The notes under the pieces were generated by a model that was given only the letters and a program-made list of their open reading frames with translations, did no database searches and had not been told where the DNA came from. Of a stretch of 64,000 nt of DNA, positions 13,460-56,502 are shown in pieces. Each line of letters begins with the position of its first letter. The stretch's first letter is position 1. The stretch lies in contig JAUVDV010000001.1 of assembly GCA_030595125.1 (NCBI GenBank), positions 43,861 to 107,860 of the forward strand, given 5' to 3'. Both the position numbers and the translations under genes were made by a program. This DNA is from Deltaproteobacteria bacterium. GTDB taxonomy: Bacteria; Myxococcota_A; Polyangia; JAAYKL01.

Positions 13460-13525
13460 GCGACAGACTTATTTATCGAGTAACATCATGAAAACTTGGA
13501 AGAATAAAAGTGACTGGCACCGTTT
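13460..13525 (+). repeat. ~70-bp intergenic repeat, copy 1, ending in AAAAGTGACTGGCACCG
   Basis: Aligns to 16047-16113 (GCG.CAGAC..ATTT.TCGA.GTAACATCA.G........GAAGAATAAAAGTGACTGGCACCGTTT). Confidence 0.8.
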
Positions 13526-13533
13526 TTGGGGGT

Positions 13534-14550
13534 CTACCAGGTCCTCCCCTCCTCCCGGTCGGTCATCAGTATGCCGTTGATGTGGTCGTATTCGTGTAAC
13601 CACACCTTGGCGTCGAAGTCCTCGAGGTCATAGTTCTCGACATGGTCACCTTCGGGCGTGTCAAACTCCACTGCTATCCACGCCGGGCGGCCGACGAAAC
13701 TCGACACTCCATCTATCGAGAGGCACCCCTCTGCATAGCCGTAATACAGATCGTCCTGTGCCCAGTCGACGATCCTCGGGTTGACGAACACCCGCTGCTC
13801 GCTGTTCACGTCGGCGGCGAACATCCGTCTCCCCACCGCTACCTGGGGCGCCGCGAGCCCCACGGCGCCGAGCGGGAACTGGGAGTCCAGCAGCTTGAGC
13901 GCAAAAGCGCCCACCTCCGGGTCGTCAGGGCGCACCGGGATGGAGATATTGTAGAGCGTGCTGTCTGGATCGTCCCAGTCCTTGACCAGGTTCGACTCCA
14001 GGAACGCGTCTTCGCCCCCCGCGTGCATCGCCGCCAATTCCGACGTTGACAGATCTGCGGTGACCTCAGGATCGTACTCCTCGTCGAACGGCGTGTCGTC
14101 CACGGTGAAACCAAAAACGAAATCCTCGGCCAACCGGATCTCGGGATCGCCGGCCAGGGCCGCGCCGGCGACGATCGTTACCTCGTGCTGTTCGGCGGGA
14201 GCCCACACGGGGAAGGGTACAAAGCGGAACTCCCGGTTGCCCGCCTCATTAGTAAAATAGGGCCGAGCCCGAACCGGCTCCCCGTCGACGAGGACGACCA
14301 CCGTCTCCGGATCTACGTAGTCCTGCTCCGGGGGCGCCCCGGAGAAGAGAATATGGATCTTCTGGTTAATCTGAACCACCGCGCCGTCTTCGGGCTCGTG
14401 GGCTTCGACGAAGAGGCCATCCGTGTCGATTTCAGTCTCGGTATCGCCGCCGTCGACTGCGTCGCTTTCCCCCTCCTCGGCGCACGAGGACGCCCAGAAG
14501 ATCGCCAGGCAGCACAGGAAAGTCGTATAATCCGTATAACGATGTGTCAT
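13534..14550 (-). CDS. def: Lipoprotein: Ig-like (SbsA/Big_5-type) domain fused to peptide deformylase
   Basis: PDF motifs VGLAAPQV, EGCLS, HEYDHING; leader ending WASSC, acidic linker, then P-x-DGA...IHILFS Ig-like domain. Confidence 0.8.
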   Translation of the reverse strand: MTHRYTDYTTFLCCLAIFWASSCAEEGESDAVDGGDTETEIDTDGLFVEAHEPEDGAVVQINQKIHILFSGAPPEQDYVDPETVVVLVDGEPVRARPYFTNEAGNREFRFVPFPVWAPAEQHEVTIVAGAALAGDPEIRLAEDFVFGFTVDDTPFDEEYDPEVTADLSTSELAAMHAGGEDAFLESNLVKDWDDPDSTLYNISIPVRPDDPEVGAFALKLLDSQFPLGAVGLAAPQVAVGRRMFAADVNSEQRVFVNPRIVDWAQDDLYYGYAEGCLSIDGVSSFVGRPAWIAVEFDTPEGDHVENYDLEDFDAKVWLHEYDHINGILMTDREEGRTW

Positions 14551-14555
14551 AATTG

Positions 14556-14577
14556 AGGTATTATATCTTAAGATGAG
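14556..14577 (-). promoter_or_regulatory. Conserved promoter element, copy C, with TATAAT -10 (near-leaderless transcript of def lipoprotein)
   Basis: Minus strand reads CTCATCTTAAGATATAATACCT; ATG 9 nt after TATAAT. Confidence 0.55.
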
Positions 14578-14587
14578 GTTGGGAGTG

Positions 14588-15976
14588 ATGAAATCCGCAC
14601 AAATCAACTTTGGGCAAACCGAGGTCCTCATCCAATTGCCCGACGAAGTGGAAATCCTTTCCATGAAGTCGCCTGCGGTGTTGTCCGATCCTGCGCAGGC
14701 CATTCAAGACGCATTGCAGCATTGTATCGGCACCGCGAGCCTGGAAAGTATCATCACCTCTAAATTGCAGGCCAAGCCCGATGCAAATGCCGTAATCGTA
14801 ATCTCAGACAATACCCGGCCGGTCCCATACCGGGGAGAGAATGGGATTCTACGGCCAATCGTGGACAAGCTACTTGGAGCGGGAATCCCGCCAGACCGGA
14901 TTATGATTCTGGTAGCAACCGGAACGCACAATCCTGTTCCGGAAGCAATGTTGCGGGAAATGCTTGACCCAGGAATTTTCGAAAAGGGCATTACCATCAA
15001 GAACCACAACTGCGTGGACCAGAGTTCTCTCGTTCACCTTGGTAAAAGCGATTGCGGCAACAAGATGGTGGTGAACCGCGATTATGTGCGAGCCGACATC
15101 AAGATCATCACAGGGTTGGTCGAAAGTCATTTCATGGCCGGGGCCTCGGGGGGACGCAAGGCCATTTGCCCGGGGCTTATTGGCGAGGAAAGTACATTTG
15201 TATTCCATGGTGCCAGGATTCTGGATGATCCATTGTCACGCGATTTGGTTTTGGTCGGGAATCCCTGCCACGAAGAAGCTGTGCAAATAGCCGAAGCTGC
15301 CGGCTGTGATTTTTCAGTGAATGTAACGCTTAACGAAAAATACGAGTTGACGGGCGTTTTTGCCGGCGATTTGCTTGGGCCGCACCAGCATGCAGTCAAT
15401 AAAATCCGCGAATATGTCACGATCCCCATACAGGAAGAATACGATATCGTGATTTCACACGCGGGCTTTGTGGGTATCAATCATTACCAGGCAGCCAAGG
15501 CTGCCGTGGTGGCCATTCCTGCGATCAGGCGGGGCGGCAAGATGATTCTGGTGGCGAATACCACGGATGTGGATCCGGTAGGGAGCGGGCGGTATCGAAG
15601 CGTGCTCAAATTCCTCAAGCAACTGGGGCCGGAAAAATTCCGCCGGCTCATTTTGTCCGACACGTGGGAGTTTGTGCCCGATCAGTGGGAGGCGCAAATG
15701 TGGGCGCGTTTGTTTAGCAAGACACCGGCAGAGAATTTCGTGTTTTACGCGCCACAGCTGAAGGTCGAGGATTTCAGTATTCTCTCGGGGGTCGATGGGA
15801 ACGTTTTCCTTCCTGGCGAACGGCAATATCAAGACAGCCTGGAGAATATCCCTTTTGTTGTGGAACAGGCGCTTCGCAAGATCGTTGCGGACCTGCGGGG
15901 CCAAGGAGTGGCCAATCCGCGCATTGCTTTTCTGGTGGATGGGCCCTATGGGGTTCCGGTGAAAGTGGAAAGGTGA
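14588..15976 (+). CDS. larA: Nickel-pincer-dependent lactate racemase (LarA) family protein
   Basis: ISDNTRPVP, VATGTH, HFMAGASGGRKAICPG, GNPCHEE motifs. Confidence 0.85.
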   Translation: MKSAQINFGQTEVLIQLPDEVEILSMKSPAVLSDPAQAIQDALQHCIGTASLESIITSKLQAKPDANAVIVISDNTRPVPYRGENGILRPIVDKLLGAGIPPDRIMILVATGTHNPVPEAMLREMLDPGIFEKGITIKNHNCVDQSSLVHLGKSDCGNKMVVNRDYVRADIKIITGLVESHFMAGASGGRKAICPGLIGEESTFVFHGARILDDPLSRDLVLVGNPCHEEAVQIAEAAGCDFSVNVTLNEKYELTGVFAGDLLGPHQHAVNKIREYVTIPIQEEYDIVISHAGFVGINHYQAAKAAVVAIPAIRRGGKMILVANTTDVDPVGSGRYRSVLKFLKQLGPEKFRRLILSDTWEFVPDQWEAQMWARLFSKTPAENFVFYAPQLKVEDFSILSGVDGNVFLPGERQYQDSLENIPFVVEQALRKIVADLRGQGVANPRIAFLVDGPYGVPVKVER

Positions 15977-16046
15977 TGGGCGCGGGACGTGTGGGAACGA
16001 GCCGTAGTCTTTGAAGTGACCTTTGAAGTGATGTCTGCCGAAAGGA

Positions 16047-16113
16047 GCGCCAGACACATTTGTCGAAGTAACATCACGTAATAAAAGAAGAATAAAAGTG
16101 ACTGGCACCGTTT
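16047..16113 (+). repeat. ~70-bp intergenic repeat, copy 2
   Basis: Direct repeat of 13460-13525; the last 27 bp are identical. Confidence 0.8.
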
Positions 16114-16135
16114 CAGGGGGGGGGAACCTGATCGG

Positions 16136-16897
16136 TTAGTCGGGTTTAGAATAGGTCTGGTCCCTTTGCAGATCTTCAGGCAGGTCGGCGGCGTTCTTCT
16201 TGATTTCCTTGAAACCGCGGTGGCAAAGCTCCGCCAGACAGCAATCCTCCCCCCGGCGCTCCCTTGTCCCGTTGACGATCACGCGGATGGCGGTGATCTT
16301 GGCGGCGTGGTCCATCACCCTCTCGGTCAGCTTGCGGTACATCCCCCAACCAAGCTTCTCCACCCTGGGGATGATGAAAAACCGATCGATGGAGACCTTT
16401 ATCAGCGCGACCAGAGCGACAAATCCAGCCAACAAGATAATCGACTGGAGGCCTTTCTCTCCCAAATGGGCGATAGCTGTGACCACGAGAATGAGCGCAA
16501 CGGAGATCGCGATATCGATAAAAGATATGGCGAAAGACAAAAGTTCATACTTGCGGCCGGTGGCGGTTATGTGTTTGCGCACCCGGTTTCGCATGTCATC
16601 GAAGTATTTGTTGTACTCGAGTGGTCTGGGCTGAGCCCTGTCGGACTGCTCGGGCAAATGCTCGGAGAATTCCTTGAAGATACGGGAGGCGTCATTGAAC
16701 GCCCAGTGCAGGTCATGCTTGGCCCTATCTTCGTAGACCCCGTACAGGTCGCCGAAGATATCCCTGGAGCTATCGATGTACCCCTTTTTGGCCTCGAACA
16801 GTTCGTTCGAGTACGTGTCGGGGTATACCTCCTTCGCGAAAGATTTCATGGTGTTGTAGAACATCTTCACGCTCCCGCTATCGATTGATCCTGGCAC
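16136..16897 (-). CDS. Hypothetical membrane protein (two TM)
   Basis: 253-aa ORF with two hydrophobic segments; start uncertain. Confidence 0.55.
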   Translation of the reverse strand: MPGSIDSGSVKMFYNTMKSFAKEVYPDTYSNELFEAKKGYIDSSRDIFGDLYGVYEDRAKHDLHWAFNDASRIFKEFSEHLPEQSDRAQPRPLEYNKYFDDMRNRVRKHITATGRKYELLSFAISFIDIAISVALILVVTAIAHLGEKGLQSIILLAGFVALVALIKVSIDRFFIIPRVEKLGWGMYRKLTERVMDHAAKITAIRVIVNGTRERRGEDCCLAELCHRGFKEIKKNAADLPEDLQRDQTYSKPD

Positions 16898-16909
16898 TGA
16901 TTCGCGCCA

Positions 16910-17257
16910 CTAGGGCTCATTTTCAAAGATTGATATGTCTTTCATTACCTTTTTGAACCTGCGAACTCTGGGGACAGAAGCAAACAATCCGACAATTATG
17001 CCCACCAGCCCACCGGAAAAAGAGAAAGAAATGACTCTATTACGCATCAATACTTCAGAATAAGGTTGAACCACCGCCGAATTCAAATCATCCCCTCCTT
17101 CCAAACCCGCAGGAGCGCACGGACACATCTCTCTATTTTCCCAAAAGAAATACCAGTACGAGCCCATTCCTCCCAGGGATACCCCAAGAATGGCCATGAG
17201 CCCCAGTGACTTGATCCAATATGAAAGTCCACCTGTCATGGATACAGACATAACCAC
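16910..17257 (-). CDS. Hypothetical small membrane protein, low GC
   Basis: 115 aa, two hydrophobic segments; AT-rich. Confidence 0.45.
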   Translation of the reverse strand: MVMSVSMTGGLSYWIKSLGLMAILGVSLGGMGSYWYFFWENREMCPCAPAGLEGGDDLNSAVVQPYSEVLMRNRVISFSFSGGLVGIIVGLFASVPRVRRFKKVMKDISIFENEP

Positions 17258-17339
17258 TATTTTTCAAATTGCCTTCGTCGAAGCCAAAAGGGCCGTGAAT
17301 GCGCGGAAACGAGTCAGAGTCTGTTAAAAGAGGTGTTCT

Positions 17340-18238: not shown

Positions 18239-19363
18239 ATGAGATTATTCGTTATGATTATCGTCTCGTTGCTCGTCGCGGCGGCGGCTCCGGGTTGTGG
18301 CGATTCGGACAGAGAAGATAACAGCGACGGCACAGACACGGACACGGACACAGACACAGACACGGACACGGACACAGACACGGACACGGACACCGACACA
18401 GACACAGACACGGACACAGACACGGACACCAACCCCGATGGCTGCGAGGGGGTCGACTTCCTTTTCATGGTCGACAACTCCATCTCTATGGAGGATGAGC
18501 AGCAGAACCTGATCGACAGTTTCCCCGGCCTGATCTCTGCTATCACCGAAACCCTTCAACTCGACGACTTCCACATCATGGTGGTGGATTCCGATTCCAT
18601 CTACACATCGCCGAGCGAGTGGGAGACCCACGCCTGCACCAGCGCCGGATGCTGCGCCACCTGGTGTGGCACGGTGCCGGACTATTACGACTGCACAGAG
18701 ACCGGCGTCGCTCCGTATTACTCCTGCGCCGAGTGGCTCCTGGGCGATACGACCTCACCCGACTGCGACTCATTGCTCGGGGCCGGTCACCTCGGCAGCA
18801 ACACCGGAACCACATGCGTGATCGATGGGGATAATCGCTACCTCATCGAAGGCCAGACCGATCTGAACGACGCGTTCGCCTGCATCGCGGACGTGGGCAC
18901 TGACGGCAATGGTAACGAGCGGATGATGGAGGCGATGGTCAACGCGGTCGGCGTATTCAACGAGCCCGACGGATGTAATGAGGCCTTCATCCGGGACGAG
19001 GCAGTGCTCGTCGTGACGTTCATCACCGATGAGGACGAGGCCTGCACCGCAATCGGCGAGGAGTGCTCACAGGGGAACGCAATGACCTGGAAGCAGGCGC
19101 TGGTCGATGCCAAGGGCGGCAACGAGGAGGCCGTCGTGCTGCTGGGAATATTTGGCGATATCGGGCAACCGGGGGAAATTTGCGATCCGCTCGATCCCTA
19201 CTCGGGGGCTGGCGCCGAGGCAGCGCCGTTGCTCAACGCCCTGGTCGATTCTTTCGGCGACAGGGGACACTTCTGCAGCGTCTGCCTGGCCGATTACACT
19301 GATTGCTTCCTCGAGGCGGTGAGCATCATCGAGATGGCATGCGATGACCTGGTAATCGAGTGA
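18239..19363 (+). CDS. Lipoprotein with (Asp-Thr)n linker and vWA-like domain
   Basis: Lipobox APGC; DT tract; VDFLFMVDNSISM MIDAS-like motif; LVVTFITDEDE. Confidence 0.75.
   Translation: MRLFVMIIVSLLVAAAAPGCGDSDREDNSDGTDTDTDTDTDTDTDTDTDTDTDTDTDTDTDTDTNPDGCEGVDFLFMVDNSISMEDEQQNLIDSFPGLISAITETLQLDDFHIMVVDSDSIYTSPSEWETHACTSAGCCATWCGTVPDYYDCTETGVAPYYSCAEWLLGDTTSPDCDSLLGAGHLGSNTGTTCVIDGDNRYLIEGQTDLNDAFACIADVGTDGNGNERMMEAMVNAVGVFNEPDGCNEAFIRDEAVLVVTFITDEDEACTAIGEECSQGNAMTWKQALVDAKGGNEEAVVLLGIFGDIGQPGEICDPLDPYSGAGAEAAPLLNALVDSFGDRGHFCSVCLADYTDCFLEAVSIIEMACDDLVIE
18332..18430 (+). repeat. Hexanucleotide tandem repeat (GACACN)n encoding Asp-Thr
   Basis: About 16 in-frame units of GACACG/GACACA/GACACC. 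Confidence 0.95.
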
Positions 19364-19747: not shown

Positions 19748-21073
19748 CTACTCGGGCGGCTCGTACTCGCCCTCGCAAACGCCAACTTCGAGAATGACGT
19801 ACAACAGGGCCAGTTCCTGCGGGGTCAGGGTGGCGCTAGCGGCCTGCGAGGTCTCGTACACCGAGTAGAAGACCTTGCCGCAACCCCAGTTGAAGGTGAC
19901 CATCAACGGCGCTCCCGGGTAGGCCATGTTGTCGACCACCCAGGTGTAGGGCTTGACCCAGAAGTTATCCTCTTCGAGGCCCAAACCGTTGTCCACATCG
20001 ACGGTCTCTTCGATCTTCACGTAGCCGTCTGTGAACGGGAACGAGTTGACGTTCAGCCCGGTGACCCCGGACAGCCAGTCGCGCATCTCCGTATCTTGCA
20101 CGTTGCCCGTCGTTGTGTATGCCACCCAATCGACACGGCCCACGTCGAACACATCGGTGGGATCAGTGGTTCCCATGCCGCCGTAGAAGTCGATCGGTAC
20201 CGGGAACGTGGACTCCAGCCACAGGCTCGCGCAGCATGAGTTGTACATCTTGCCGCCGTTCTCCACGTAGGTCCGCACCTTCTCGGTCTGGTTGAGGACA
20301 AAAGGTACGCCGTTGGCGTTGGACTCGCACGGCATGAACAACATGTGATACGCGTCCAGATCATCCTGGGTGGTGAAGAGGGTGGCCGACAACGGATAGC
20401 CCCCAGTCTCCGCGTCGTCGTAGGCGTCAAACACCTCGGTGCCGTATTCGAGGTGCCCCTGGACATCCACGCTGCCCAATCCGAGCTTGGCCAGCAGGTC
20501 CTGGGTCCGGTCCCACACGGCGAGGATCACCGCATAGCGGGGTATTTGATCCAGTCCGTCGCCCGAGTTCGTTGCGGGCAGGGTGGTGTACTCCTCGGGG
20601 ATCTCCAGTTCATCCTCCCCGGTGATGGTGACCGTACGCTGCCGCTGGAAGAACCCTTTGCGCGTCACTATTGTCCACTCTCCATCGGGGACGTCCTCGA
20701 TGATCCAGGTACCGTCCGCGTTCGAGAGGGTCCAGTCCTTGCCGGTCATGTCGTCGCATTCGTAGCAGTAGGCTTCGGCCGGGATCACCGGGACATCTTC
20801 GGAGGTGAGGTAGATCAGCGCGCCGGAAATCGGGATATCCCCGGTGGGGGACATCACCGTACCATTGAGCACGGCGCCCTCTGTCGGATCATCCCCGGTA
20901 TCGGTATCCGAGCCGGTATCGGTATCCGTATCGGTATCGGTATCCGTGTCGCTACCCGCGTCTTCTATGGGGTCGTTCACATGCGTATCTTCAGCGCCCG
21001 TGCAACCGATAGCCAACACCAAGAAGCAAAGAGCTACCAGTCCGATGGCCATACGCGTAGTAATCTTATCCAT
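19748..21073 (-). CDS. Lipoprotein with DT linker and carboxypeptidase-regulatory-like domain
   Basis: Lipobox AIGC; AGGAGG RBS; GTVMSPTGDIPISGALIY; DT tract at ~20896-20953. Confidence 0.7.
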   Translation of the reverse strand: MDKITTRMAIGLVALCFLVLAIGCTGAEDTHVNDPIEDAGSDTDTDTDTDTDTGSDTDTGDDPTEGAVLNGTVMSPTGDIPISGALIYLTSEDVPVIPAEAYCYECDDMTGKDWTLSNADGTWIIEDVPDGEWTIVTRKGFFQRQRTVTITGEDELEIPEEYTTLPATNSGDGLDQIPRYAVILAVWDRTQDLLAKLGLGSVDVQGHLEYGTEVFDAYDDAETGGYPLSATLFTTQDDLDAYHMLFMPCESNANGVPFVLNQTEKVRTYVENGGKMYNSCCASLWLESTFPVPIDFYGGMGTTDPTDVFDVGRVDWVAYTTTGNVQDTEMRDWLSGVTGLNVNSFPFTDGYVKIEETVDVDNGLGLEEDNFWVKPYTWVVDNMAYPGAPLMVTFNWGCGKVFYSVYETSQAASATLTPQELALLYVILEVGVCEGEYEPPE

Positions 21074-45119: not shown

Positions 45120-45126
45120 CGTGAGC

Positions 45127-45564
45127 CTACCAGGTAATGGGTCCTCCACCGTGGCAACTCATTCCGGTGCAGGTCTGAGTTGAGGTGTCGTAGCTTCCGC
45201 TCCCTCCTGGAGCGATGTCCGGATTCTCATCCGTATGGGCCGTCTGGTCGGTTATCGAACCGGAACTGTCTACCATCGTATGACAGGTACTACAGCCCAT
45301 GGAGTGATCGCTATGGGAACCCGTATTGGGTGGATTTCCGTGACATGAATCACAGCCCAGATCGGTATCAGTGTCCGTATCAGTGTCCGTATCCGAATCG
45401 GTATCGCTGTCCGAATCGCTGTCTGAATCCGAGTCACCGTCCGAATCGGAGTCGCTGTCCGAATCGGTATCGCTGATGATGTCATCATCATCTCCACAAC
45501 CGGGTACAAAAACCAATCCAGGTGCCAGTAGTGTGGCCACAAATATGATCATCCATTTTCCCAT
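45127..45564 (-). CDS. Small c-type cytochrome lipoprotein with DS/DT linker (CxxCH x2, CxxxxCH x1)
   Basis: Lipobox VPGC; CDSCH, CSTCH, CTGMSCH; AAGGAGG RBS. Confidence 0.8.
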   Translation of the reverse strand: MGKWMIIFVATLLAPGLVFVPGCGDDDDIISDTDSDSDSDSDGDSDSDSDSDSDTDSDTDTDTDTDTDLGCDSCHGNPPNTGSHSDHSMGCSTCHTMVDSSGSITDQTAHTDENPDIAPGGSGSYDTSTQTCTGMSCHGGGPITW

Positions 45565-45654
45565 GAGAGCCTCCTTGAGACTATAAAAGAAGTAGACATT
45601 GCATTATTGCACAGTTTTTGGGGTTTGCAAGCCGAGCAAGCGCGATGGCGAGAT

Positions 45655-47262: not shown

Positions 47263-47389
47263 CGGGTGCTCCTAAAAAAAGGTTACGTCGATGTTAAGGG
47301 TTCTAGAAGAACTATTTACTGTTGCAAAGTGGAAAATTAAAAGCGAGAAAGAGCCGGCGAGGGCTTTATTGTCGTAGAGGAACAAACCT

Positions 47390-48526: not shown

Positions 48527-49281
48527 CGCGCGATATGAACAAGTACCTGCGCGACGGGTTGCCCGGAACGCGCTTCTGTCCGGGGTGTGGGCATGGAATT
48601 CTCATGGGCGCGATCCTCAGGGCGGTCGACCGACTCGACGTGGCTCTGGACGATCTGCTGTTTGTCTCCGGAATCGGGTGCGCGGCGTGGATCCCCAGCC
48701 CCAACATAGGAACCGATACGCTCCATACGTTGCACGGGCGTGCGCTGGCTTTTGCCACCGGCGCCAAGCTCGCCAACCCGAAATTGACCACAATAGTTGC
48801 GTCGGGGGACGGGGATCTGACATCCATCGGGGGGAACCACCTTATTCACTCCGCGCGGCGCAACCTGGACGTCACCGTCATCTGCGCGAACAATCTGATC
48901 TACGGAATGACCGGCGGTCAAACAGCGTCAACCACACCGGTGGGAGCGCGCACATCCACCGATCCCGACGGGAACAATTTTCGGCCCTTTGATATCTGCA
49001 ACCTGGTGATGGCGTCCGGAGCCAGGTACGCCGCTCGTTTCCCGGTGACTCGCCCGAAGCAACTGATCGACGCCATCGAGAAGGCTCTGCGAATCGAGGG
49101 CTTCACCTTCGTAGAGGCGGTGAGTCCGTGTCCGACCCAGTTCGGACGCCGTAACTCGACGGCGGAAATCTCCGCGTTGTACGACAGCGTGGATTCCCAG
49201 TGTATCTCCCGGGCGGAGGCACAGACCATGGATGAGGACGAGCGATTGCGCCATTTCGTCGTTGGAGAGTTCGAACCATGA
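48523..49281 (+). CDS. korB: 2-oxoacid:ferredoxin oxidoreductase beta subunit
   Basis: FCPGCGHG, SGIGC, GDGD TPP motif, NNLIYGMTGGQ. Confidence 0.9.
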   Translation: MTRDMNKYLRDGLPGTRFCPGCGHGILMGAILRAVDRLDVALDDLLFVSGIGCAAWIPSPNIGTDTLHTLHGRALAFATGAKLANPKLTTIVASGDGDLTSIGGNHLIHSARRNLDVTVICANNLIYGMTGGQTASTTPVGARTSTDPDGNNFRPFDICNLVMASGARYAARFPVTRPKQLIDAIEKALRIEGFTFVEAVSPCPTQFGRRNSTAEISALYDSVDSQCISRAEAQTMDEDERLRHFVVGEFEP

Positions 49282-49838
49282 ACCACGCCATGAACAGATC
49301 TCCGGTTCAGGTGCGCATTGGCGGCGAGGCGGGCCAGGGCGTGATTCTCGCCGGCGTCATGCTGGCACAGGCGGCCATCGGGGATGGTCGCAAAGTGGCT
49401 CAATCCGCGCGTTACGGCGCAGCGGTTCGCGGTGGTGAGGCGACTGCGGATCTGGTTATCTCCGATACGCCTATCGATTATCCCCACGTGGAGACTCCGG
49501 ACATCCTAGTGGTCTTTTCCCAGCAGACTTACGACAAATTCGCGCCGGCCGGGACCGGAGATACAAAAGTGTTCTACGATCCGTTTTTCGTCACGCCGTC
49601 GAAGACCGCCGGGGGCAGCCTCTGGGAGATCTCCGCCACCGAGATGGCCATCGAGAAGTTCGGCAAGAGCACCTCTTCCAATCTGATCGTCCTGGGTTTC
49701 ATCGCACAGCTCACGGAGGTGGTATCGGAGGAAAGCCTGCTCGCCGCTATCGAGCAAAACCTCCCGTCCAGGCACCGCGCTGCGGGTCTCGAGGCGCTTG
49801 CGATGGGAAAAAAGGCGGCTGTGGAGGCAGGTGCATGA
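49278..49838 (+). CDS. korC: 2-oxoacid:ferredoxin oxidoreductase gamma subunit
   Basis: IGGEAGQGVILAG, YGAAVRGG, NLIVLG. Confidence 0.88.
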   Translation: MNHAMNRSPVQVRIGGEAGQGVILAGVMLAQAAIGDGRKVAQSARYGAAVRGGEATADLVISDTPIDYPHVETPDILVVFSQQTYDKFAPAGTGDTKVFYDPFFVTPSKTAGGSLWEISATEMAIEKFGKSTSSNLIVLGFIAQLTEVVSEESLLAAIEQNLPSRHRAAGLEALAMGKKAAVEAGA

Positions 49839-51190
49839 GCGGCGGCAGGACCCACAGGCCACAACGCGATTCGGCCAAATGCATGGTCTGCGGCGGGTGC
49901 ACGTGGCAGTGCCCGGCAACGGTTTTTCCCAGCCTGAGGAGCGAGGAGGGATCTCTGAGGGGTGAGATCTACAGCTCAAAAGAGTTTCCCGGCGAGATGG
50001 CCGACCGTCCTCCCTGCGTGATGGCGTGCCCCCTGGGTCAGGATGTCCCGGGATATATCAGCGCCATAGCGCGGAATGACGTGGACGAGGCTGCAATTAT
50101 TGTTCGCAGGACCAACGCCCTGCCATCCGTGTGCGGCCGTGTCTGCATCGCCTCCTGCATGAGGGCCTGCACAAGGGCGAGAATCGACATGGGCGTGGAC
50201 ATTCGCTCGCTGAAACGCTTTGCCGTGCACGTGGCCGCGGAGGCGCAAGTTGAAACGAATGTCGGGGCCGGCTCGGTGGCGATTATCGGATCCGGCCCGG
50301 CAGGTCTGGCGGCGGCCCACAGATTGAACCAGCTGGGTGTTCGATCGGTGGTGTTCGATGCGGGCTCGACTCCGGGTGGTTCAATGACGGACACGGTGCC
50401 GCGATTCGTTCTGCCCCGTGAGATGGTGGCAAAGGACGCGGCCCGCCTGGTACGGATGGGTGTCGATATTCGTTCGGGAACTCGCATCGGGGAGGACATA
50501 TCCTTTTGCGACCTGGAGTCTTCATATGAGGCCGTGCTGGTAGCTACCGGGGCGCGACGGGATCTGGCGGCTGCGTTTCGAGGATCAGAGCTGAAGAATA
50601 TTGTCGGCGCTGCGGAGTACTGCCGAAACGAACGGAAGATGGACGGCGTGGTGGTTGTGAACGGTGGTGGTCCGTCGGCGGTGCAGGCGGCCCGATTGGC
50701 CGTGCGGCTCGGCGCCCGGAGCGTATCAGTGATCCACCCTGCGCCCCTGGAACAGTGGCCGGCGGGGGATCACGCCCTTGGGCTTGCGCGCGAAGAAGGT
50801 GTTGAGGTTCGCCCCACGCATCGAATAGTGGAAGCGCAGGGTCAAGACGGGATCCTCACGGCGGTGATGGTGAAGGCCGTCAAGGCCGATAACGCGGACG
50901 AGGTTGGCAGGTACAAGCTCGCTTCCCGCGGCGCGGTCGAGCAGCTGGAGGCGGGGCTCCTGATCGTGGCCGGCGAGCGGAGATCATCGACCGAGGACCT
51001 GCCCGATCTCGACGGCATTACACGCGGGGTACTCGGTAATCTACTGATCGACGAAGAGTATCGCCTCGGGCGGGAGCGCTGGTACGCGGCCGGCGAGTGT
51101 GCGACCGGAGCAGCCACGGTGGTCGATTCAATGGCCACCGGGAGGCTTGCGGCCGAGACTATTCATCGCGATCTCGAGTTGGGAAAGTAA
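49835..51190 (+). CDS. GltD/SudA-like FAD/Fe-S oxidoreductase with extra N-terminal ferredoxin motif
   Basis: CMVCGGCTWQCP; PPCVMACP; CGRVCIASCMRAC; IIGSGPAGLAAA. Confidence 0.8.
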   Translation: MSGGRTHRPQRDSAKCMVCGGCTWQCPATVFPSLRSEEGSLRGEIYSSKEFPGEMADRPPCVMACPLGQDVPGYISAIARNDVDEAAIIVRRTNALPSVCGRVCIASCMRACTRARIDMGVDIRSLKRFAVHVAAEAQVETNVGAGSVAIIGSGPAGLAAAHRLNQLGVRSVVFDAGSTPGGSMTDTVPRFVLPREMVAKDAARLVRMGVDIRSGTRIGEDISFCDLESSYEAVLVATGARRDLAAAFRGSELKNIVGAAEYCRNERKMDGVVVVNGGGPSAVQAARLAVRLGARSVSVIHPAPLEQWPAGDHALGLAREEGVEVRPTHRIVEAQGQDGILTAVMVKAVKADNADEVGRYKLASRGAVEQLEAGLLIVAGERRSSTEDLPDLDGITRGVLGNLLIDEEYRLGRERWYAAGECATGAATVVDSMATGRLAAETIHRDLELGK

Positions 51191-51193
51191 CCG

Positions 51194-51973
51194 ATGGCCA
51201 TTTCACTCACCATAGACGGCGAACAGGTAACGGCGAAAGAGGGACAGAGCCTTCTTGCCGTTGCCCGGGCAGCCGGGGCCATGATCCCGTCCCTGTGTGC
51301 CCATCCCCATCTCAAGCCTTACGGCGCCTGCCGCATGTGCCTGGTGGAGGTGACGAGGAACGGGCGGACTCGGATCACCACATCGTGTAATTACGAAGTG
51401 CTCGACGGGATAGAGGTGAGAACCGACACGGAGGAAGTCCGGCGACATCGGAAGATGGTGCTTCGCCTGTTGCTCGGCATTGCGCCACAGGCCTCCGCGA
51501 TCGTGGGGATGGCGAAAGCCAACGGTGTCGATGAGTCGACATTCACACCTTGGGAGCCGCCGGCGGGACGGGAAAACTGCATACTGTGCGGATTGTGCGC
51601 CCGCGTCTGTGAGGAGGTGGTGGGAGCTTGCGCCCTGACCCTGAGTGGTCGGGGCGACAGGAGAGGGTTGGAGGTGCCGTACGCGCAGCGGGTGGCGGAG
51701 TCGTGCATCGGATGCGGAGCCTGCGCTGCGGTTTGCCCCACGGGCGCGGTGGAGGAGGAGAGCATCAAGGTGGAGGTGCTGCGAAAACGTCCTGCCACGG
51801 AAAGAAAGTGCCGGTACAACATGATGGGCCTGATGCCCGGCGCCCTGTGTCCAAATAACTACGACTGCGCCGCCTGTGAAGTTGATCAACGGTTTGTCGA
51901 GGCGTGTCGCCCACACCACCCGATATTCGCCGCGAAGGGCCTCATTTCTCCGAAGGGTTGGGAGAGTAAATGA
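51194..51973 (+). CDS. NuoG/HoxU-like 2Fe-2S + 2x4Fe-4S protein with Cys-rich tail
   Basis: IPSLC...GACRMC...SC; CILCGLCARVC; CIGCGACAAVCP; CPNNYDCAAC. Confidence 0.8.
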   Translation: MAISLTIDGEQVTAKEGQSLLAVARAAGAMIPSLCAHPHLKPYGACRMCLVEVTRNGRTRITTSCNYEVLDGIEVRTDTEEVRRHRKMVLRLLLGIAPQASAIVGMAKANGVDESTFTPWEPPAGRENCILCGLCARVCEEVVGACALTLSGRGDRRGLEVPYAQRVAESCIGCGACAAVCPTGAVEEESIKVEVLRKRPATERKCRYNMMGLMPGALCPNNYDCAACEVDQRFVEACRPHHPIFAAKGLISPKGWESK

Positions 51974-52293
51974 CTACGCGTTCTGACGTATGCACGGTGA
52001 AGGGGGAAAAACGCGTAAGCCCGGCGATGGCGAGCGGAGCGCAACGTGTAAAGAGCTTCGACGAGGTGGAGCCGACCCTGACCCTGGCCGAGGCATCCTA
52101 CGAAGCGCTTCGATGCACCGTATCGAGCCCGTGCCTGTACTGTGACGTCTGTCAGCTCATGTGCCCTGATCTGGCCATCACCCGCGATCCCAAATCGGGA
52201 GAGATCATTATTGATCTGGATTTCTGCAAGGGCTGCGGATTGTGCGCCCACTACTGCCCGCGCGGGGCCATCGACATGGTCCTGGACGAATAA
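51970..52293 (+). CDS. 4Fe-4S dicluster ferredoxin (delta-subunit-like) with GltD C-terminal-like leader
   Basis: CLYCDVCQLMCPD; FCKGCGLCAHYCP; SFDEVEPTLT...EALRC. Confidence 0.8.
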   Translation: MTTRSDVCTVKGEKRVSPAMASGAQRVKSFDEVEPTLTLAEASYEALRCTVSSPCLYCDVCQLMCPDLAITRDPKSGEIIIDLDFCKGCGLCAHYCPRGAIDMVLDE

Positions 52294-52303
52294 CCTGCCA
52301 AAG

Positions 52304-52717
52304 TTACGCGGCCTTCACTAACACCTTCCTGGGTTTGAGGGCGTCCGCCTTTGGTAGCCGCACGGTGAGAACGCCGTTCACGAGTTTCGCTTCGATCCCG
52401 CTCTGGTCGATCTTGTCGCTCAGGGTAAACCGCCGGGTGTACCCGCCGATGCCGTACTCCCGATATCGGAGCTTCCAGTCGGAGTCCGGCTCGTCCACTT
52501 TGCCCGTGACGGTGAGGACCGAGTCCTCGAGATCCACGTTCAAATCTCCGGGCGCCACCCCGGGCATGTCCGCGACGATGACAAGATCCTCTTCGGTCTG
52601 GAAGATATCAACAGCCGGTGAATAGAAGACACCCGGACGGGTGGGCTCTCCCGCTTGGCTGGAGATGGGCTGTTTCTCTTTTGGAACCAATTCCGTTTTT
52701 TCTTTTCGCCTGGTCAT
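52304..52717 (-). CDS. Small heat-shock protein Hsp20
   Basis: PAVDIFQT...ADMPGV...YTRRFTL...NGVLTVRLPK. Confidence 0.92.
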   Translation of the reverse strand: MTRRKEKTELVPKEKQPISSQAGEPTRPGVFYSPAVDIFQTEEDLVIVADMPGVAPGDLNVDLEDSVLTVTGKVDEPDSDWKLRYREYGIGGYTRRFTLSDKIDQSGIEAKLVNGVLTVRLPKADALKPRKVLVKAA

Positions 52718-52738
52718 ATCGATTCTCCTTCCACGATG

Positions 52739-53176
52739 TCAGTTCTTGACGGTGATCTGCCTGGGCAAGGCATGTGCGGCCCTGGGCAAGACGATTTCCA
52801 GGACACCGTTCTCGAACCGGGCGTCAATCTTGTCCGGGTCGATGGGCTGTCCCAGATCGATGGTGCGGTTGAAGCTTCCGTGATCTCGCTCTGCACGATG
52901 ATAGCTTCTGTCGGCGATATCGTTGTTGGGACTTCGTTCACCTTTCAGGGTCAGCTGCGTCGCCGTGGCGGTGATGTCCAGATCGTCCAGAGAGATCCCC
53001 GGGATCTCGGCTAGGACGATGTACGATTCGCCGTTGTCGTAGGTGTTGATCGGCGGAAAGACACCGCAGGCGTTTTTTGAATAGTCCCGCTCGCCGAACA
53101 GGTCGCCCATGTGTTGTTGCCACCGGTTCATCTCCTGCCAGATGTCGTTGAAACGATGTGTTCTCAAAACTGTCAT
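52739..53176 (-). CDS. Small heat-shock protein Hsp20
   Basis: FPPINTY...AEIPGI...ERDHGSFNRTI...NGVLEIVLP; GGAGG RBS before 53176. Confidence 0.92.
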   Translation of the reverse strand: MTVLRTHRFNDIWQEMNRWQQHMGDLFGERDYSKNACGVFPPINTYDNGESYIVLAEIPGISLDDLDITATATQLTLKGERSPNNDIADRSYHRAERDHGSFNRTIDLGQPIDPDKIDARFENGVLEIVLPRAAHALPRQITVKN

Positions 53177-53230
53177 TGCTCGCCTCCAAATCTTTGCCGG
53201 GGTTTTCGTCCCCGGGTTTTCTCTTCGCAA

Positions 53231-53246
53231 TGCAATGTGGGCACCG
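53231..53246 (-). promoter_or_regulatory. Possible sigma54 promoter of hsp20 pair
   Basis: Minus strand CGGTGCCCACATTGCA has GG-N10-GC spacing and TTGCA -12. Confidence 0.4.
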
Positions 53247-53365
53247 TTTTTGTGCGGTAAAGCCCGGGTTGTGTTTTTTTTGGGAGGGAAAAAACCGATC
53301 ATGGAAAGGACGTTTTATAGTGTCGTCGATCACAAGCGGGGTAAAATGGTGTTCAGGAGGACGCC

Positions 53366-53833
53366 GTGAAGAGAATCTCAATATTGACGATATGCATTGG
53401 CGTGTTGGCTGTGACATTCACCTGGAGTGGCTGTGACGACGAGGGCGGCACGGACGAGTTTTCGGAAGCACGCCAGAGGTGCGTGCAGAAGATCAATGAT
53501 TTTCGCGCCACCGAGGGGATACCTGCCCTGGCCCGCTGGTACAGCGGAGAACCCTGCGCCGACGACGAGGCAAAGCAGGACGCCCAGGCGGGGCAGTCTC
53601 ACAGCGCTTTTGGACAGTGCGGCGAGGCGGCCCAGAACGAGTGCCCGAGCTGGCCCTCGGTGGACGACATCATCGACGGATGCCTCCAGAGCATGTGGGA
53701 CGAGGGACCGGGCGCTGACTACAGCGTTCACGGACACTATATCAACATGAGCAGCACCAGTTACGAAAAGGTAGCCTGCGGGTTCTACAGGACGTCCGCC
53801 GGTGACATCTGGTCTGTGCAGAATTTCAAATAG
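53366..53833 (+). CDS. CAP/SCP-domain lipoprotein
   Basis: Lipobox WSGC; INDFRA, AQNE, GHYINM...VACGF...VQNF. Confidence 0.8.
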   Translation: MKRISILTICIGVLAVTFTWSGCDDEGGTDEFSEARQRCVQKINDFRATEGIPALARWYSGEPCADDEAKQDAQAGQSHSAFGQCGEAAQNECPSWPSVDDIIDGCLQSMWDEGPGADYSVHGHYINMSSTSYEKVACGFYRTSAGDIWSVQNFK

Positions 53834-53850
53834 TCCCCAAAAAGACAGGT

Positions 53851-54774
53851 GTGAGATTGCGACACGATAAACCGTCCCGCAGAAAGTTTTTCGGCGATTG
53901 CGCCGTCGCGGTGGCCGCCGTCGGGGTGGGCGCGGCAGTGGGTTGTGCGGGGGAGACCGACCGGGCAAAAGCGGAGGCTCCGGGGACCCATCACGAGCCG
54001 GGTGAATGGTGGACCGAGGGCCGTTACGTGGTTCACCGAACGGTCGATGCATCCAGGCTCAATGATGGTCTGTTGAGAGCCAGAATCGACGGCTCCTGGC
54101 GTGACGTATCGGTGGTGAACCTTCCGGACAGGTTTGTGCGATGGAGTTTCGAGGAGAGGATAGCCCGCCTTGCAAAGCTGGCCGCCGTGGGGTTCGATAC
54201 CAGAGATCTGGACGGGCCCCACAACGCGTGCGTGGCCACATACGGAGGCTGGAGTCGCGACTCGGCGTTCTCCCTCAACACAGCCTACAAGGGGATGGGG
54301 TTCACGCCTACCGAGGAGAGGCTTCCGGGCACTCTCGACGAACTTGGGGAAGAGTCGGAGCGGATCCGCAGGGCGTCCAGGGGCGATTTCATGGCCGACA
54401 TGCGTGAGAAGATCAAGTTTCTGGCCGGTCTCTACAACGACGCGAGCCGCTTCGATATGACCAGGCAGGTCTCCCTCGAGCTCTTTACGGAGCCGGGATA
54501 TGCCACGCACACTTTTCTGAACATGATGGCCAACCCCATCGTCTCCGCGTCGTTCCTGGCCTATCCGACCTTTGAGATACGGGCGGTTCCGCAGCTCCTG
54601 CACCCGGAAAACCCCGCGCTCACGCCTCACGAGCGGAACGTTGTTCGCTACACGAACGCGATTCACGATTTCGTTCACGGTGGTACGGGGGATCGGATGA
54701 CCTGCATCTACCACATTTGCGAGGTGTTCGACGACACGCCTAACAAGGGTGGAGCGGGCACGCGGCTTGTCTGA
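53851..54774 (+). CDS. Tat-signal (lipo)protein, probable FMN-binding split-barrel family
   Basis: SRRKFF twin-arginine, AVGC lipobox; HNACVAT...LNTAYKGMG...SLELF...HTFLN...FDDTP pattern. Confidence 0.55.
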   Translation: MRLRHDKPSRRKFFGDCAVAVAAVGVGAAVGCAGETDRAKAEAPGTHHEPGEWWTEGRYVVHRTVDASRLNDGLLRARIDGSWRDVSVVNLPDRFVRWSFEERIARLAKLAAVGFDTRDLDGPHNACVATYGGWSRDSAFSLNTAYKGMGFTPTEERLPGTLDELGEESERIRRASRGDFMADMREKIKFLAGLYNDASRFDMTRQVSLELFTEPGYATHTFLNMMANPIVSASFLAYPTFEIRAVPQLLHPENPALTPHERNVVRYTNAIHDFVHGGTGDRMTCIYHICEVFDDTPNKGGAGTRLV

Positions 54775-54804
54775 CGTCATGTGACAAGTGATGGGTATTG
54801 ACCC
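54719..54804 (+). repeat. 86-bp direct repeat, left copy (3' end and trailer of 53851 gene)
   Basis: 82/86 identical to 56417-56502. Confidence 0.95.
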
Positions 54805-54836
54805 CTTTCCTTTCCGGATAGAAGCGGGTTACTAAT

Positions 54837-56357
54837 TCAGGGATCTCTGCGTCCATTCAGTTTCATCATTGCCAAATGAGCGGCCCTGAACCACCGGGGG
54901 GTTCTTAAGTGGGCTTCGCGGATGGAGGGTGTTGTCAGAAACGACTTATCGATGAAGTTTCGAGCTTCTTCCCGGGGAGAGATACCGCCGCATGTAAAAG
55001 GGCGATACAAATGAATGACGTCTTCGTTGCCGGGATAGTCTCCCATCATTATCTCAAATTCTTCGGCCCGTTGTGCAAGTTCGCAGTACTTGGGAAGGTT
55101 GAACAACGACAGGTTCATGAAATCCACATCGGAGGAGTTGCTTTCAATGAGATCGAGAGTCGCTTGCCGGTGCTCAGACGTTTCGCCCGGTAAGCCGAAC
55201 AAAAGATACAGATAAGTACGGATACCCGCGGCTGCAGCTTGTCGAATTGTTTCTGCCGATTCTTTTGCGCGTAGCCCTTTATCGAAACGGTCGAGCAAAT
55301 TGTCGCTTCCACCCTCTACACCCAATTGCAGCATCAACAATCCGGCCTCAGCGGCATCTTCGAGCAGCCCGTCTCGCGTGAGTTCTTCAGAGGGCCGAGC
55401 GAATCCGTAGAACTTTACTCCGTACTCACGGGCCGCAGGAAGAAATTGTCGTAGTCTTTTGGGGGGAATTGCCGAGTCCAGCAAATGAACGATGGGTCTG
55501 CGTTCAATAATGTCATTGGGTATGGAACTCAGGAATTGTGTGTACGATGATTCGGGCACTTTGACGAAGGGCATCTCCCTGTCCGGGCAAAAAAGGCAGC
55601 GGCGCCAGTAACAACCAGTGGACAGGGTGAATGGAACAACGGGGTGGGCACTCAGGTAGGGCAGACTGCTTACAAGCGTAGGCCAGGAGATTCTATCCCA
55701 AAAACCCAGTTCGTTTTGATTGGGGATCAGTGATGCCCCGTTGGACAAATCGATTGTTCCAAGTACTTTATGAAGCGCATCGAGTCCATGCCCGGTCGTA
55801 GCGAGGCTGCGAGGGAGTGATCCTCCAATTATGGGTTCAATACCTCTCTGTTTGAGAAATGAAACCAAGTCGATTGTTGAAGCCAGCTGTGACAGATATG
55901 CCAATGAGATAAGAACATGTTTGGGCTTTATCTCATTGAGCACTGGTTCCAGGCGTTCCTCCCATAGTTGTGAAAATGGGTTGGCACCGTTGGAAAGCCG
56001 GTCGGCTAGTGCAGACGGATCGTGTACGTGTTCCGGCGAAGTAATGTCCATGAAAGTGAGTTTCCAGCCGGAATTGATGTTCGAATACTGTTTGAGTTGC
56101 TTGTGCAATGAGCCGGCTGCGGTTCTGTGCCGCATCGGGTCGTATCCGGTTTTCATGTTCAGCAGATACTGCACCGAGTTTTCAACAGCCGCAGTTTTTA
56201 TTTCGGGATGATCGAGGGTTTGATGAAAGAACTCCAGCGAGAGATCAAAAAGGCCGGCGTCATAGCCGTTTCCGGTCAAACCCGCTGCCAGTATGAAAGC
56301 TCCGGAAGGGGGTTCTGCCGGAGTGCACACAGGTCCGGAGAGTACAAGATACTCCAT
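54837..56357 (-). CDS. Radical SAM protein with B12-binding-like N-terminus
   Basis: GCYWRRCLFC (CxxxCxxC), LQLGVEGGS, YLLFGLPGET; lower GC than flanks. Confidence 0.85.
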   Translation of the reverse strand: MEYLVLSGPVCTPAEPPSGAFILAAGLTGNGYDAGLFDLSLEFFHQTLDHPEIKTAAVENSVQYLLNMKTGYDPMRHRTAAGSLHKQLKQYSNINSGWKLTFMDITSPEHVHDPSALADRLSNGANPFSQLWEERLEPVLNEIKPKHVLISLAYLSQLASTIDLVSFLKQRGIEPIIGGSLPRSLATTGHGLDALHKVLGTIDLSNGASLIPNQNELGFWDRISWPTLVSSLPYLSAHPVVPFTLSTGCYWRRCLFCPDREMPFVKVPESSYTQFLSSIPNDIIERRPIVHLLDSAIPPKRLRQFLPAAREYGVKFYGFARPSEELTRDGLLEDAAEAGLLMLQLGVEGGSDNLLDRFDKGLRAKESAETIRQAAAAGIRTYLYLLFGLPGETSEHRQATLDLIESNSSDVDFMNLSLFNLPKYCELAQRAEEFEIMMGDYPGNEDVIHLYRPFTCGGISPREEARNFIDKSFLTTPSIREAHLRTPRWFRAAHLAMMKLNGRRDP

Positions 56358-56416
56358 TTGGGGAAACTACATTGCCTGCACAAGGTGCTCAACAATAATT
56401 CTCATCCTTAGAAAAA

Positions 56417-56502
56417 GCGAGGTGTTCGACGACACGCCTAACAAGGGTGGAGCTGGCACGCGGCTCGTCTGACGTTATGTGACAAGTGATGAGTATTGAC
56501 CC
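56417..56502 (+). repeat. 86-bp direct repeat, right copy
   Basis: Encodes EVFDDTPNKGGAGTRLV*; both coding-part substitutions are synonymous. Confidence 0.95.

Follow-up and report, generated by a model that had tools for sequence, protein, structure and literature searches.

How do genes come to stand behind a resident gene in such a way that the end of that gene is found on both sides of them? The question is raised by a stretch of 64,000 nt (the window; G000:C173:43861-107860) from an uncultured marine-sediment bacterium, in which the 3' ends of dnaK and of a gene for a protein with a twin-arginine translocation (TAT) signal each occur a second time beyond an inserted segment, and in which the insert behind dnaK carries the gene of a predicted REP-associated tyrosine transposase (RAYT; REP, repetitive extragenic palindrome). 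The genome, G000, is a metagenome-assembled genome (MAG) of 5.39 Mb in 203 contigs, with 57.7% GC and 2.3% contamination. Contig numbers (C) without a genome prefix belong to G000, and G001 and G002 are sister genomes. The gene-side copy of a repeat is called proximal (P) and the orphan copy beyond the insert distal (D). Both gene-end duplications that an earlier note on this DNA had read around cargo are where it had placed them, with lengths of 76 and 86 nt. The RAYT-clade unit and its end motif show a real and repeated association with gene-tail duplications, which covers about a third of the events. This hints at, and does not prove, that its enzyme is behind gene-tail insertions.

The first locus is made up of the following features.
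40910-42832, plus strand: dnaK (Pfam HSP70, E=3.8e-258), 92-93% identical in G001 and G002.
42777-42852, plus strand: P copy of the dnaK tail, the last 56 nt of the coding sequence and 20 nt after the stop codon.
42853-42916, plus strand: 45-nt spacer and motif copy M1 (17-mer at 42900-42916).
42904-43941, plus strand: metallophosphoesterase lipoprotein gene (PE; Pfam Metallophos, E=3e-11).
43986-45040, minus strand: RAYT-like insertion sequence (IS) unit with decayed left end, gene at 44031-44966 and right-end 17-mer M2 at 45024-45040.
45044-45119, plus strand: D orphan copy of the dnaK tail, starting 4 nt past the last base of the element.
45127-45564, minus strand: small lipoprotein-like open reading frame (ORF) with an Asp/Ser-rich linker, a variable slot with other genes near dnaK in the sisters.

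The two copies of the dnaK tail (pair D7) are 76 nt long, 95% identical and spaced by 2267 nt, and there are exactly two in the 5.39-Mb genome. The order in the window is dnaK - P - 45 nt - M1 - PE - RAYT - M2 - D - small ORF - hydrolase. In G001 and G002 it is dnaK - a gene differing per genome - PE - 12 nt - hydrolase, with one dnaK tail each. The flank downstream of D, GAGCCTACCAGG..., is similar to what immediately follows dnaK in G002. The spacer before M1 holds a partial inverted arm, CGGTGAGTC, able to pair with the motif, and as single-stranded DNA M1 and spacer fold at -5.3 kcal/mol (z=-1.5; 16 of 200 shuffles as good); a degenerate M1 region occupies the same position upstream of the phosphoesterase gene in G002. 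A single history was tried for this locus, and the data do not discriminate among its three candidates, which were a local hop of M1-PE-RAYT, an import of RAYT-D-X anchored in the hydrolase gene, and a tandem duplication with later deletions.

The second locus has no transposase gene and a simpler layout.
53851-54774, plus strand: TAT-signal protein gene (weak TAT-signal matches only), 91% identical in G001 and G002.
54719-54804, plus strand: P copy of its tail, 56 nt of coding sequence and a 30-nt post-stop tail.
54805-56416, minus strand: cargo segment with a radical SAM gene at 54837-56357 (506 aa; Pfam Radical_SAM, E=2.8e-10).
56417-56502, plus strand: D orphan copy of the tail (family D5).
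56515-56982, plus strand: ORF of 155 aa without family match, a further variable gene absent from G002.

Here the pair (D5) measures 86 nt, with 95% identity, a spacing of 1698 and again exactly two copies in the genome. The radical SAM gene, with weak NCBIfam matches to B12-binding and methyltransferase-type radical SAM families, is absent from G002, where the site is empty: 43 nt are followed by sequence matching 57114. G001 has its own orphan copy of 182 nt (G001:C164:136-317) with other cargo. The 30-nt post-stop tail is missing at the empty site of G002 and present behind the gene in G001.

What kind of protein is encoded in the dnaK insert? The ORF at 44031-44966 on the minus strand (P0001, 311 aa) has no Pfam match even at E<=10, and its residues 4-141 match the NCBIfam family NF047646, 'REP-associated tyrosine transposase', with E=3.7e-9. 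It has 77 homologues at E<=1e-5, all metagenomic and many on contigs of 1-1.7 kb; some are named RayT by the Joint Genome Institute (JGI), and the distant homologues P0074 and P0079 carry PF01797. H61 and Y123 are the same in all sequences of an alignment of 23, the catalytic-tyrosine helix motif Y-x3-N-(P)-V-K-x-G-L is present, and a C-terminal block (PQPLCH ... DVEFPPGTFRPP) is conserved. The profile of this alignment finds the E. coli TnpA-REP structure (PDB 4ER8) with E=7.2e-5 over both motifs, Y123 aligning with YIYINPVKHG of 4ER8. The profile alone did so, a single-sequence search with P0001 against PDB sequences having returned nothing relevant. An AlphaFold2 (AF2) model of P0001 has a mean predicted local distance difference test (pLDDT) of 91.3, and its best Foldseek match is again 4er8_A (E=2.8e-7, template modelling score TM(target) 0.76, root-mean-square deviation 2.5 over 154 columns), followed by ISDra2 and IS608 TnpA. 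By profile, fold and invariant His and Tyr, the product is predicted to be a RAYT-clade Y1 (HUH-type) transposase with a conserved C-terminal extension, which agrees with the transposase called here by the earlier note. The genome also has six ordinary IS200-type genes on C7, C80, C162, C134, C198 and C91 (141-aa frames, PF01797 at 72-83 bits), which do not belong to the 311-aa clade; the copy on C91 is flanked by 60-65-nt direct repeats, and these repeats are members of a multi-copy family. Two ORFs of the C3 insert were considered as RAYT relatives and dropped, with BLASTP E-values of 0.059 and 1.6 and no family matches.

The gene is part of a unit. The 1.06 kb at 43986-45040 recur at other loci in G001 and G002 (88-90%) and on metagenome contigs; the IS-like unit as a whole measures about 1.2 kb. 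In intact copies its left end is an inverted hairpin, GTGCCAGTCAC ... GGACTGGCA, laid out as CAGTGCCAGTCAC-(AT-rich loop)-GGACTGGCA. Its right end is an A-run followed by GTGACTGGCACC, a terminus also written as ...AAAAAAAGTGACTGGCACC, with the last bases ...TGGCACC. The left end in G001 folds at -12.9 kcal/mol (z=-2.6; 1 of 200 shuffles as good), and the right end has z=-1.0. Inverted motif ends are present in G001, G002, C22, C57 and L077-L084; the paralogues on C22 and C57, with 36-37% identity, have the ends GTGCCAGACACATTT ... AAATGTGTCTGGCAC. In the window copy the left hairpin, which is present in G001 and L077, has been deleted, and the unit abuts the PE stop codon. The right-end 17-mer, AAAAGTGACTGGCACCG, occurs in the window at 13506, 16094, 42900 and 45024, always exact and on the plus strand, and 18 times exactly in the genome. 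The four identical motifs of the earlier note are therefore there, but of the two said to flank the transposase only M2 is an element end. With three full and two partial RAYT-like copies G000 is not a single-copy genome, and of the 21 genomes of this bacterial family 16 carry RAYT-like units; a single genome has as many as 11 matches, often located at contig ends. The RAYT-like unit is multi-copy and mobile, the same unit being found at different loci in G001, G002 and the window.

Are gene-tail duplications confined to these two loci? To this end, the genome was compared with itself by BLAST (word size 16, hits of 40-400 nt, shorter duplications being uncounted), which gave 332 nearby direct matches. 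Two-copy pairs were kept at >=86% identity, 40-200 nt of length and 250-12000 nt of distance. In 16 of the 25 listed pairs the gene-side copy spans the stop codon of an ORF reading towards the insert, and a three-copy case on C198 has the same arrangement, which makes at least 17 gene-tail pairs where the earlier note had seen two. Outside the window the gene calls are crude (longest ORF plus GC3-GC2), and Pfam supports the flanking genes of 9 of the 17 pairs at E<=1e-4. The repeats are 48-114 nt long, with microhomology at the distal joint absorbed into the BLAST boundaries, and 87-98% identical; the inserts measure 0.4-3.2 kb, and the right edges of the repeats lie 0-70 nt past the stop codon. 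The cargo includes ORF6N, an aquaporin, methyltransferases, DUF4926+DUF6883, ABC-F, AAA_21/AAA_15, AAA_14-DUF4143, a flotillin and a DHO_dh-like gene. Genes for AAA_14-DUF4143 ATPases appear once as 'target' (L066, C52:52800-56900) and once as cargo (L069, C69), and may themselves be mobile. At C69:8155-9800 the sequence beyond the D copy contains once more the final ~110 nt of the insert together with the beginning of the gene tail. This resembles an array of a 110-nt unit plus gene tail and may reflect successive events.

Insertion with long target duplication was reportedly described by Nobusato et al. in 2000, and our duplications fit this event type. In the account of it given by Furuta, Abe & Kobayashi 2010 (Nucleic Acids Research, NAR; PMC2853133), as far as consulted passages of that paper go, the inserted gene units measure a few kb and lie between direct repeats that are unique, >30 bp long and of variable length. 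The same passages of PMC2853133 have the repeat single in a related genome, some repeats overlapping the 3' end of a neighbour, no mobility gene, and a mechanism that is unknown. The likeness lies in the unique repeats of variable length at gene 3' ends with a few kb between them. Our inserts are below 20 kb, with direct repeats above 30 bp in two copies per genome. The repeat is single where a related genome lacks the insert: the dnaK tail is single in G001 and G002, the TAT site is empty in G002, and a RAYT site of G002 is empty in C134. Empty hotspots are not always clean, since other genes occupy some of them. Two loci set aside as clean empty-site tests are C80, whose flank lies upstream of the gene in G002, and C178, whose sides are on different G002 contigs with no match in G001. 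The absence of a mobile element holds for most pairs as far as Pfam shows and fails for the dnaK insert, which holds the RAYT unit, and for the 5 of 17 pairs with an end motif. The published cases, in the part of PMC2853133 that treats them, are restriction-modification genes, few per species, while here there are 17 gene-tail cases with varied cargo. Also unlike those cases (PMC2853133, same part), about one third here terminate in the end motif of a transposon, and the footprint is found at the transposon too. This link of long-target-duplication insertions to a multi-copy RAYT-like element is the possible new part.

How strong is the link? In 5 of the 17 pairs a strict motif is found no further than 80 nt from one of the repeat copies, against a mean of 0.25 and a maximum of 3 in 2000 permutations over 4283 crude gene ends. 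A position weight matrix (PWM) for the end motif, trained only on sites outside the 17 pairs and run over the 70 nt before the D copy, gives p<=0.016 in five of them (C3, C80, dnaK, the radical SAM pair and C186); the values for C52 and C75 are marginal, and no motif signal precedes the D copy in the remaining ten. At the radical SAM cargo the distal end, AATAATTCTCATCCTTAGAAAAA, resembles the third motif variant (PWM score 6.3, p=0.010). Among 99 motif sites, four have a copy of at least 25 nt of their right flank within 4 kb upstream, versus none downstream. On C174, upstream of a gene start, a 59-nt repeat beginning with TGGCACC flanks a 59-nt insert that consists of two motif copies. The element itself leads to the same picture: close-subfamily RAYT units are flanked by gene-tail duplications of 25-111 nt at four of six distinct sites.
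dnaK tail site (window, L077, L081): 76 nt.
G001:C397 RAYT site: 94 nt, 95.7% identity.
G002:C125 RAYT site: 25 nt; in L080, with the same target gene, 93 nt.
L078 RAYT site: 111 nt, 86.5% identity.
At every positive site 0-13 nt separate GGCACC from the start of the D copy. C134 preserves the G002 RAYT site as an empty allele, and the sequence there reads ...CTTGGCACC / GCTCTCAAGAACGGTTGA / TCCCGATCAGGGG; the target therefore natively ends in the last 7 nt of the element, TGGCACC. The joint in L080 holds three tandem copies of GCACCGCTCTCAAGG, and such 'stutters', tandem copies of end and flank, are found at many right ends. They suggest repeated DNA processing at the joint of the element end. 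Stutter loci are L038, L040, L048, L056, L057, L058, L059 and L080 as well as C88:21168, C100:47853, C67:14429 and C145:10293, and partial tandem copies of the A-rich half of the motif are seen at them too.

What could produce this arrangement? The best explanation we can offer, held tentatively and with slightly less than even confidence, is that nicking and joining by the RAYT transposase makes the motif-linked third of the events, both window events included. The transposase would make two nicks in single-stranded DNA, one behind ...TGGCACC at the right end and one at a similar sequence in the gene tail, and join the two. The left side of the transferred segment would not be fixed; it may run past the left hairpin into a neighbour, or start at a solo motif, and its joint would land just behind the resident stop codon. 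With one joint behind the stop and one in the tail, the stretch between them would be present on either side of the insert. Segments with no more than the motif at their end may be carried along as well, as might have happened to the radical SAM gene and the C80, C186 and C3 inserts, and M1-PE-RAYT is possibly another such passenger. Nick position, strand transfer and copying are what we infer here from the observed anatomy, empty site, enrichment and fold; the exact right-end joints, the TGGCACC target and the stutters make nick-and-join a reasonable reading. The motif-less majority would have arisen by the same route as the described restriction-modification gene cases. We know of no enzyme linked to insertions that duplicate 50-400 bp of their target, an event known since 2000, and RAYT-type transposases are abundant while the way they move DNA in cells is poorly understood. 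Here one element family shows the footprint repeatedly, and one of its ends is always exactly at the joint, so that there are a definite protein and two short DNA ends on which the link could be tested.

A broader claim, which we regard as doubtful, is that the RAYT-clade transposase is the enzyme of long-target-duplication insertions in this lineage, homing to the same gene tails of relatives and carrying neighbour genes while sparing the resident gene. If true, it would be a gene-accretion system needing neither integrase nor attC sites, and would account for lipoproteins, defence-like ATPases, methyltransferases and a radical SAM enzyme piling up behind conserved genes that stay unharmed. 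If the link fails, the window is still a clean, read-supported case of a known event type, at an unusual density of 17 events per 5.4 Mb.

Several observations weigh against a role of the transposase. The first concern its extent. The earlier note had tied the duplications to the motif and the transposase, and this stands for the five pairs and four sites above; 10-12 of the 17 pairs are without the motif at any junction by strict motif and PWM, the close-subfamily sites in L079 and L084 have no flanking duplication, and 14 of 18 more distant RAYT-like loci in the family lack a flanking repeat of at least 12 nt (the other 12 of 30 loci were skipped for short flanks or partial genes). A clear TGGCACC is seen at one target only, that of G002 and L080, the boundaries at dnaK, G001 and L078 showing a weak likeness. 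The scanned cargo ORFs are heterogeneous and have no recombinase or integrase domain in Pfam. The locus histories are another difficulty. Element copies are 86-93% alike, which means no recent event and layered histories; L077 has the same RAYT-D-ORF-hydrolase block with another gene on its left; PE is resident in the dnaK neighbourhood of the sister genomes, and is not simple foreign cargo; and C52, tried as a clean empty-site test, was given up because its 'target' gene is itself absent from both sisters. There are also difficulties with the enzyme and its ends. The NF047646 score of 36.6 bits stays below the curated cut-off of 80, the HUH motif is HLE in the window protein and HUQ or HUH in other members, and known Y1 transposases, to our knowledge, make no target duplication. 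The motifs had been taken for REP-like hairpins by the earlier note, which they are not as solo copies, since 13470-13545 and 16058-16130 do not fold in a shuffle test (z=+0.6 and +0.9); a fold is seen in the left end of the unit in G001.

Then can the duplications be had without the transposase? This is a real possibility, if a less than probable one. A related lineage that already had the cargo behind the same gene would supply DNA, and this DNA would integrate through homology of that gene on one side and be joined on the other non-homologously, or as a Campbell-style circle, in the gene tail, with RAYT and motif as mere residents of hotspots. Such an import would suit the heterogeneous cargo without recombinase and the majority of pairs without motif. 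It would also suit the dnaK, TAT-gene and C95 hotspots, which hold different genes in each genome, and the right edges of the repeats, which lie 0-70 nt behind the stop, where lineages would cease to be syntenic. The event type has been described for restriction-modification genes mostly in naturally competent species, as the relevant part of Furuta 2010 (PMC2853133) has it. The main ground for import is the question whether the D copy is a fresh duplication or an imported allele. P and D copies differ at codon positions 1:2:3 in the proportion 17:6:22 (45 differences in 961 coding nt), or 11:2:15 without the first 10 nt, and by 32 in 349 non-coding nt. The coding bias looks like divergence under purifying selection, which would be expected of a copy that had arrived from another lineage along with the cargo, and the bias also counts against the transposase. 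It weakens to p~0.1 in a rough chi-square that allows for GC per codon position. The orphan copy of G001 equals the G000 orthologue at 3 sites where the functional copy differs; at dnaK one site shows the reverse. On the other hand, import gives no account of D copies starting 0-13 nt after the last base of the element at 4 sites, of the motif enrichment precisely before the D copy in 5 of 17 pairs (p<=0.016), of the native TGGCACC at the empty target, or of the motif-only insert on C174 with its 59-nt repeat.

Some elements integrate into the 3' end of a gene and rebuild it, which yields the same arrangement. The inserts might thus be small islands placed by a tyrosine or serine integrase of the site-specific kind, and the repeats would be their attL and attR, as at tRNA genes or icd. 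We consider this very unlikely, because the target genes are 17 different ones, the repeat length varies over 48-114 nt, the inserts reach just 0.4-3.2 kb, and the scanned cargo ORFs have no integrase domain, the whole genome not having been searched for integrases.

Could an assembler have chained two strain variants of a hotspot through their common gene tail? A MAG of 203 contigs with 2.3% contamination invites the suspicion, the copies differ by ~5% as alleles would, and the contigs used for checking break in the identical 40-nt core, so that phasing rests on the original assembly. Those were Logan contigs (k=31) of the runs X1 (the probable source), X2 (a second sample), X3 and X5 (another study). 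The cargo-to-D joints are unique and share no common k-mer by which two contigs could be chained. X1 contigs at 42793-45078, 45060-54748 and 54726-56446 bridge the junctions with 0 differences and an even depth of 15-19; X1 also covers 42000-42811 (1 difference) and 56424 onward (0 differences), breaking only in identical repeat cores. X2 yields the same contigs over the radical SAM insert, and an X5 contig bridges the first copy, M1 and PE with 23 differences. The same architecture is found in G001, G002 and other assemblies, and the G001-type TAT junction occurs again in X3, with a loose end at 54597 and identical sequence. An artefact of this kind is thus highly improbable, slightly more so than integrase islands. 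Contigs at k=31 cannot tell whether the segment is integrated or forms a 2.27-kb circle, and integration is favoured by the even depth and by the original assembly.

That the repeats are functional, as the template and variable repeats of a diversity-generating retroelement or as a radical SAM precursor peptide (a ribosomally synthesized and post-translationally modified peptide, RiPP), is next to inconceivable and was rejected: although they cover a gene 3' end and one pair has a radical SAM gene between its copies, no reverse transcriptase domain is found among the scanned window ORFs, the copy differences are not adenine-specific, and the D copy has no in-frame start codon in the stretch read and lies in no ORF of >=80 aa.

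If the RAYT transposase does nick and join as proposed, how does it compare with known systems? The likeness to a REPtron lies in the fold and the catalytic His and Tyr matching 4ER8, the gene flanked by inverted motif copies, the motif dispersed ~40 times per variant in intergenic DNA, and the REPIN-like hairpin of the left end. RAYTs together with REP or REPIN sequences are reportedly the subject of Bertels & Rainey 2011. They are typically single-copy and vertically inherited, according to a partly consulted paper (Bertels et al. 2017, PMC5581495). The present clade is different in being multi-copy, in moving as a unit, to judge from its copies, in about 170 extra C-terminal residues, in its HLE/HUQ variants of HUH and in solo motifs that are not palindromic. 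Unlike REPINs as described in that part of PMC5581495, it is accompanied by long duplications. A literature search found no paper treating RAYT transposition together with REPIN and target site duplication.

IS200/IS605 elements (IS608, ISDra2) move by single-strand 'peel and paste' and IS91/ISCR by one-ended rolling-circle transposition. The analogy with both would be an HUH nick guided by a short sequence common to end and target, with a variable second end that carries neighbours. The IS200/IS605 TnpA has ~140-155 aa, and the ends of these elements are not inverted repeats and make no target duplication, while the window element has inverted motif ends, flanking repeats of 25-111 nt and a 311-aa protein. 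The IS91 enzyme is a two-tyrosine protein of another family, and neither group is known to us to leave duplications of 25-111 nt. The likeness to an integron, which the earlier note had drawn, survives as accretion at hotspots, in that genes accrete behind a fixed resident feature without disrupting it and the arrays vary among close relatives. The likeness goes no further: there is no common attC-like site, the repeat of each hotspot being the tail of its own resident gene, and neither the window nor the scanned cargo ORFs have an integrase domain, the genome not having been searched for IntI or attC.

The end motif is also dispersed in the genome. There are about 100 dispersed solo or tandem copies in three sequence variants, GTGACTGGCAC (40 times), GTGTCTGGCAC (39 times) and [AG]TGACT[CT]CCAC[TC] (~20 times), and frequently they are tandem or 'stuttered'. 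A sigma-54 promoter reading of TGGCAC was rejected, the -12 GC element not being at the right spacing in any of the four window copies. Two of these copies account for the third repeat-bracketed gene pair of the earlier note, a 54-nt pair (D10; 13479-13532 and 16067-16120, 83% identity) around def- and larA-like genes.
13479-13532, plus strand: copy of a ~55-nt dispersed repeat, ending in the 17-mer at 13506-13522; no hairpin, z=+0.6.
13534-15976, def-like gene (minus strand) and larA-like gene (plus strand), by Pfam and NCBIfam, colinear at 92% in G002:C115.
16067-16120, plus strand: second copy of the ~55-nt repeat, 17-mer at 16094-16110; no hairpin, z=+0.9.
The 54-nt repeat exists, but the bracketed genes are syntenic core and the repeat is a dispersed one, and a third cassette was rejected. 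The first copy lies in a variable segment at 12742-13534 (with an ORF at 12735-13439), the second inside a 1.3-kb segment at 15967-17314 (ORF 16136-16897) missing in G002. The family consensus includes ...CTAACATC..GAAATAAATGAAGAATAAAAGTGACTGGCACCGTTTCAGGGGG.

A second dispersed repeat of ~53 nt (..CTAACCTGCATAATTCGCCAGCCTGCCGGTAAAATCGCGTATCCCGCGCCGTC..) has at least 6 copies, at C43:43168-43220, C115:10179-10230, C58:4082-4133, C179, C178:45800 and C15:9010. It is also found in L023 of G002, between gene tail and RAYT left end, and one copy lies inside the C43 insert, which has 54-nt gene-tail duplication flanks. At the start of C189 (C189:1-240) three tandem copies of a ~73-nt GC-rich unit contain an internal palindrome, ..CCGCCGCTTTGCGGCGAAGGTTAACGGCCGTGGGTGAACCACGGCCCTACG.., with no spacers visible, so that the array is not CRISPR-like. 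C159 (1-141 = 3259-3399) and C172 (1-141 = 3623-3763) have exact terminal overlaps of 141 nt and may be circles of ~3.3 and 3.6 kb, or tandem repeats; the overlap also hints at the k-mer size of the assembler. In the window, the minus strand encodes a ParE toxin / ParD antitoxin pair at 3720-4326 (Pfam E=1.8e-12 and 4.3e-12). Many unrelated lipoprotein-like ORFs have, close to the N-terminus, a linker rich in Asp, Ser and Thr that is encoded by low-complexity repeats with a period of 12 or 18 nt (GAxTCxGTxTCC or its complement; 18275-18472, 20880-20970, 21842-22000, 26373-26582, 33100-33340, 45337-45499 and 59333-59530), and these repeats explain most of the 'repeat families' of the window and many weak BLAST matches between loci.

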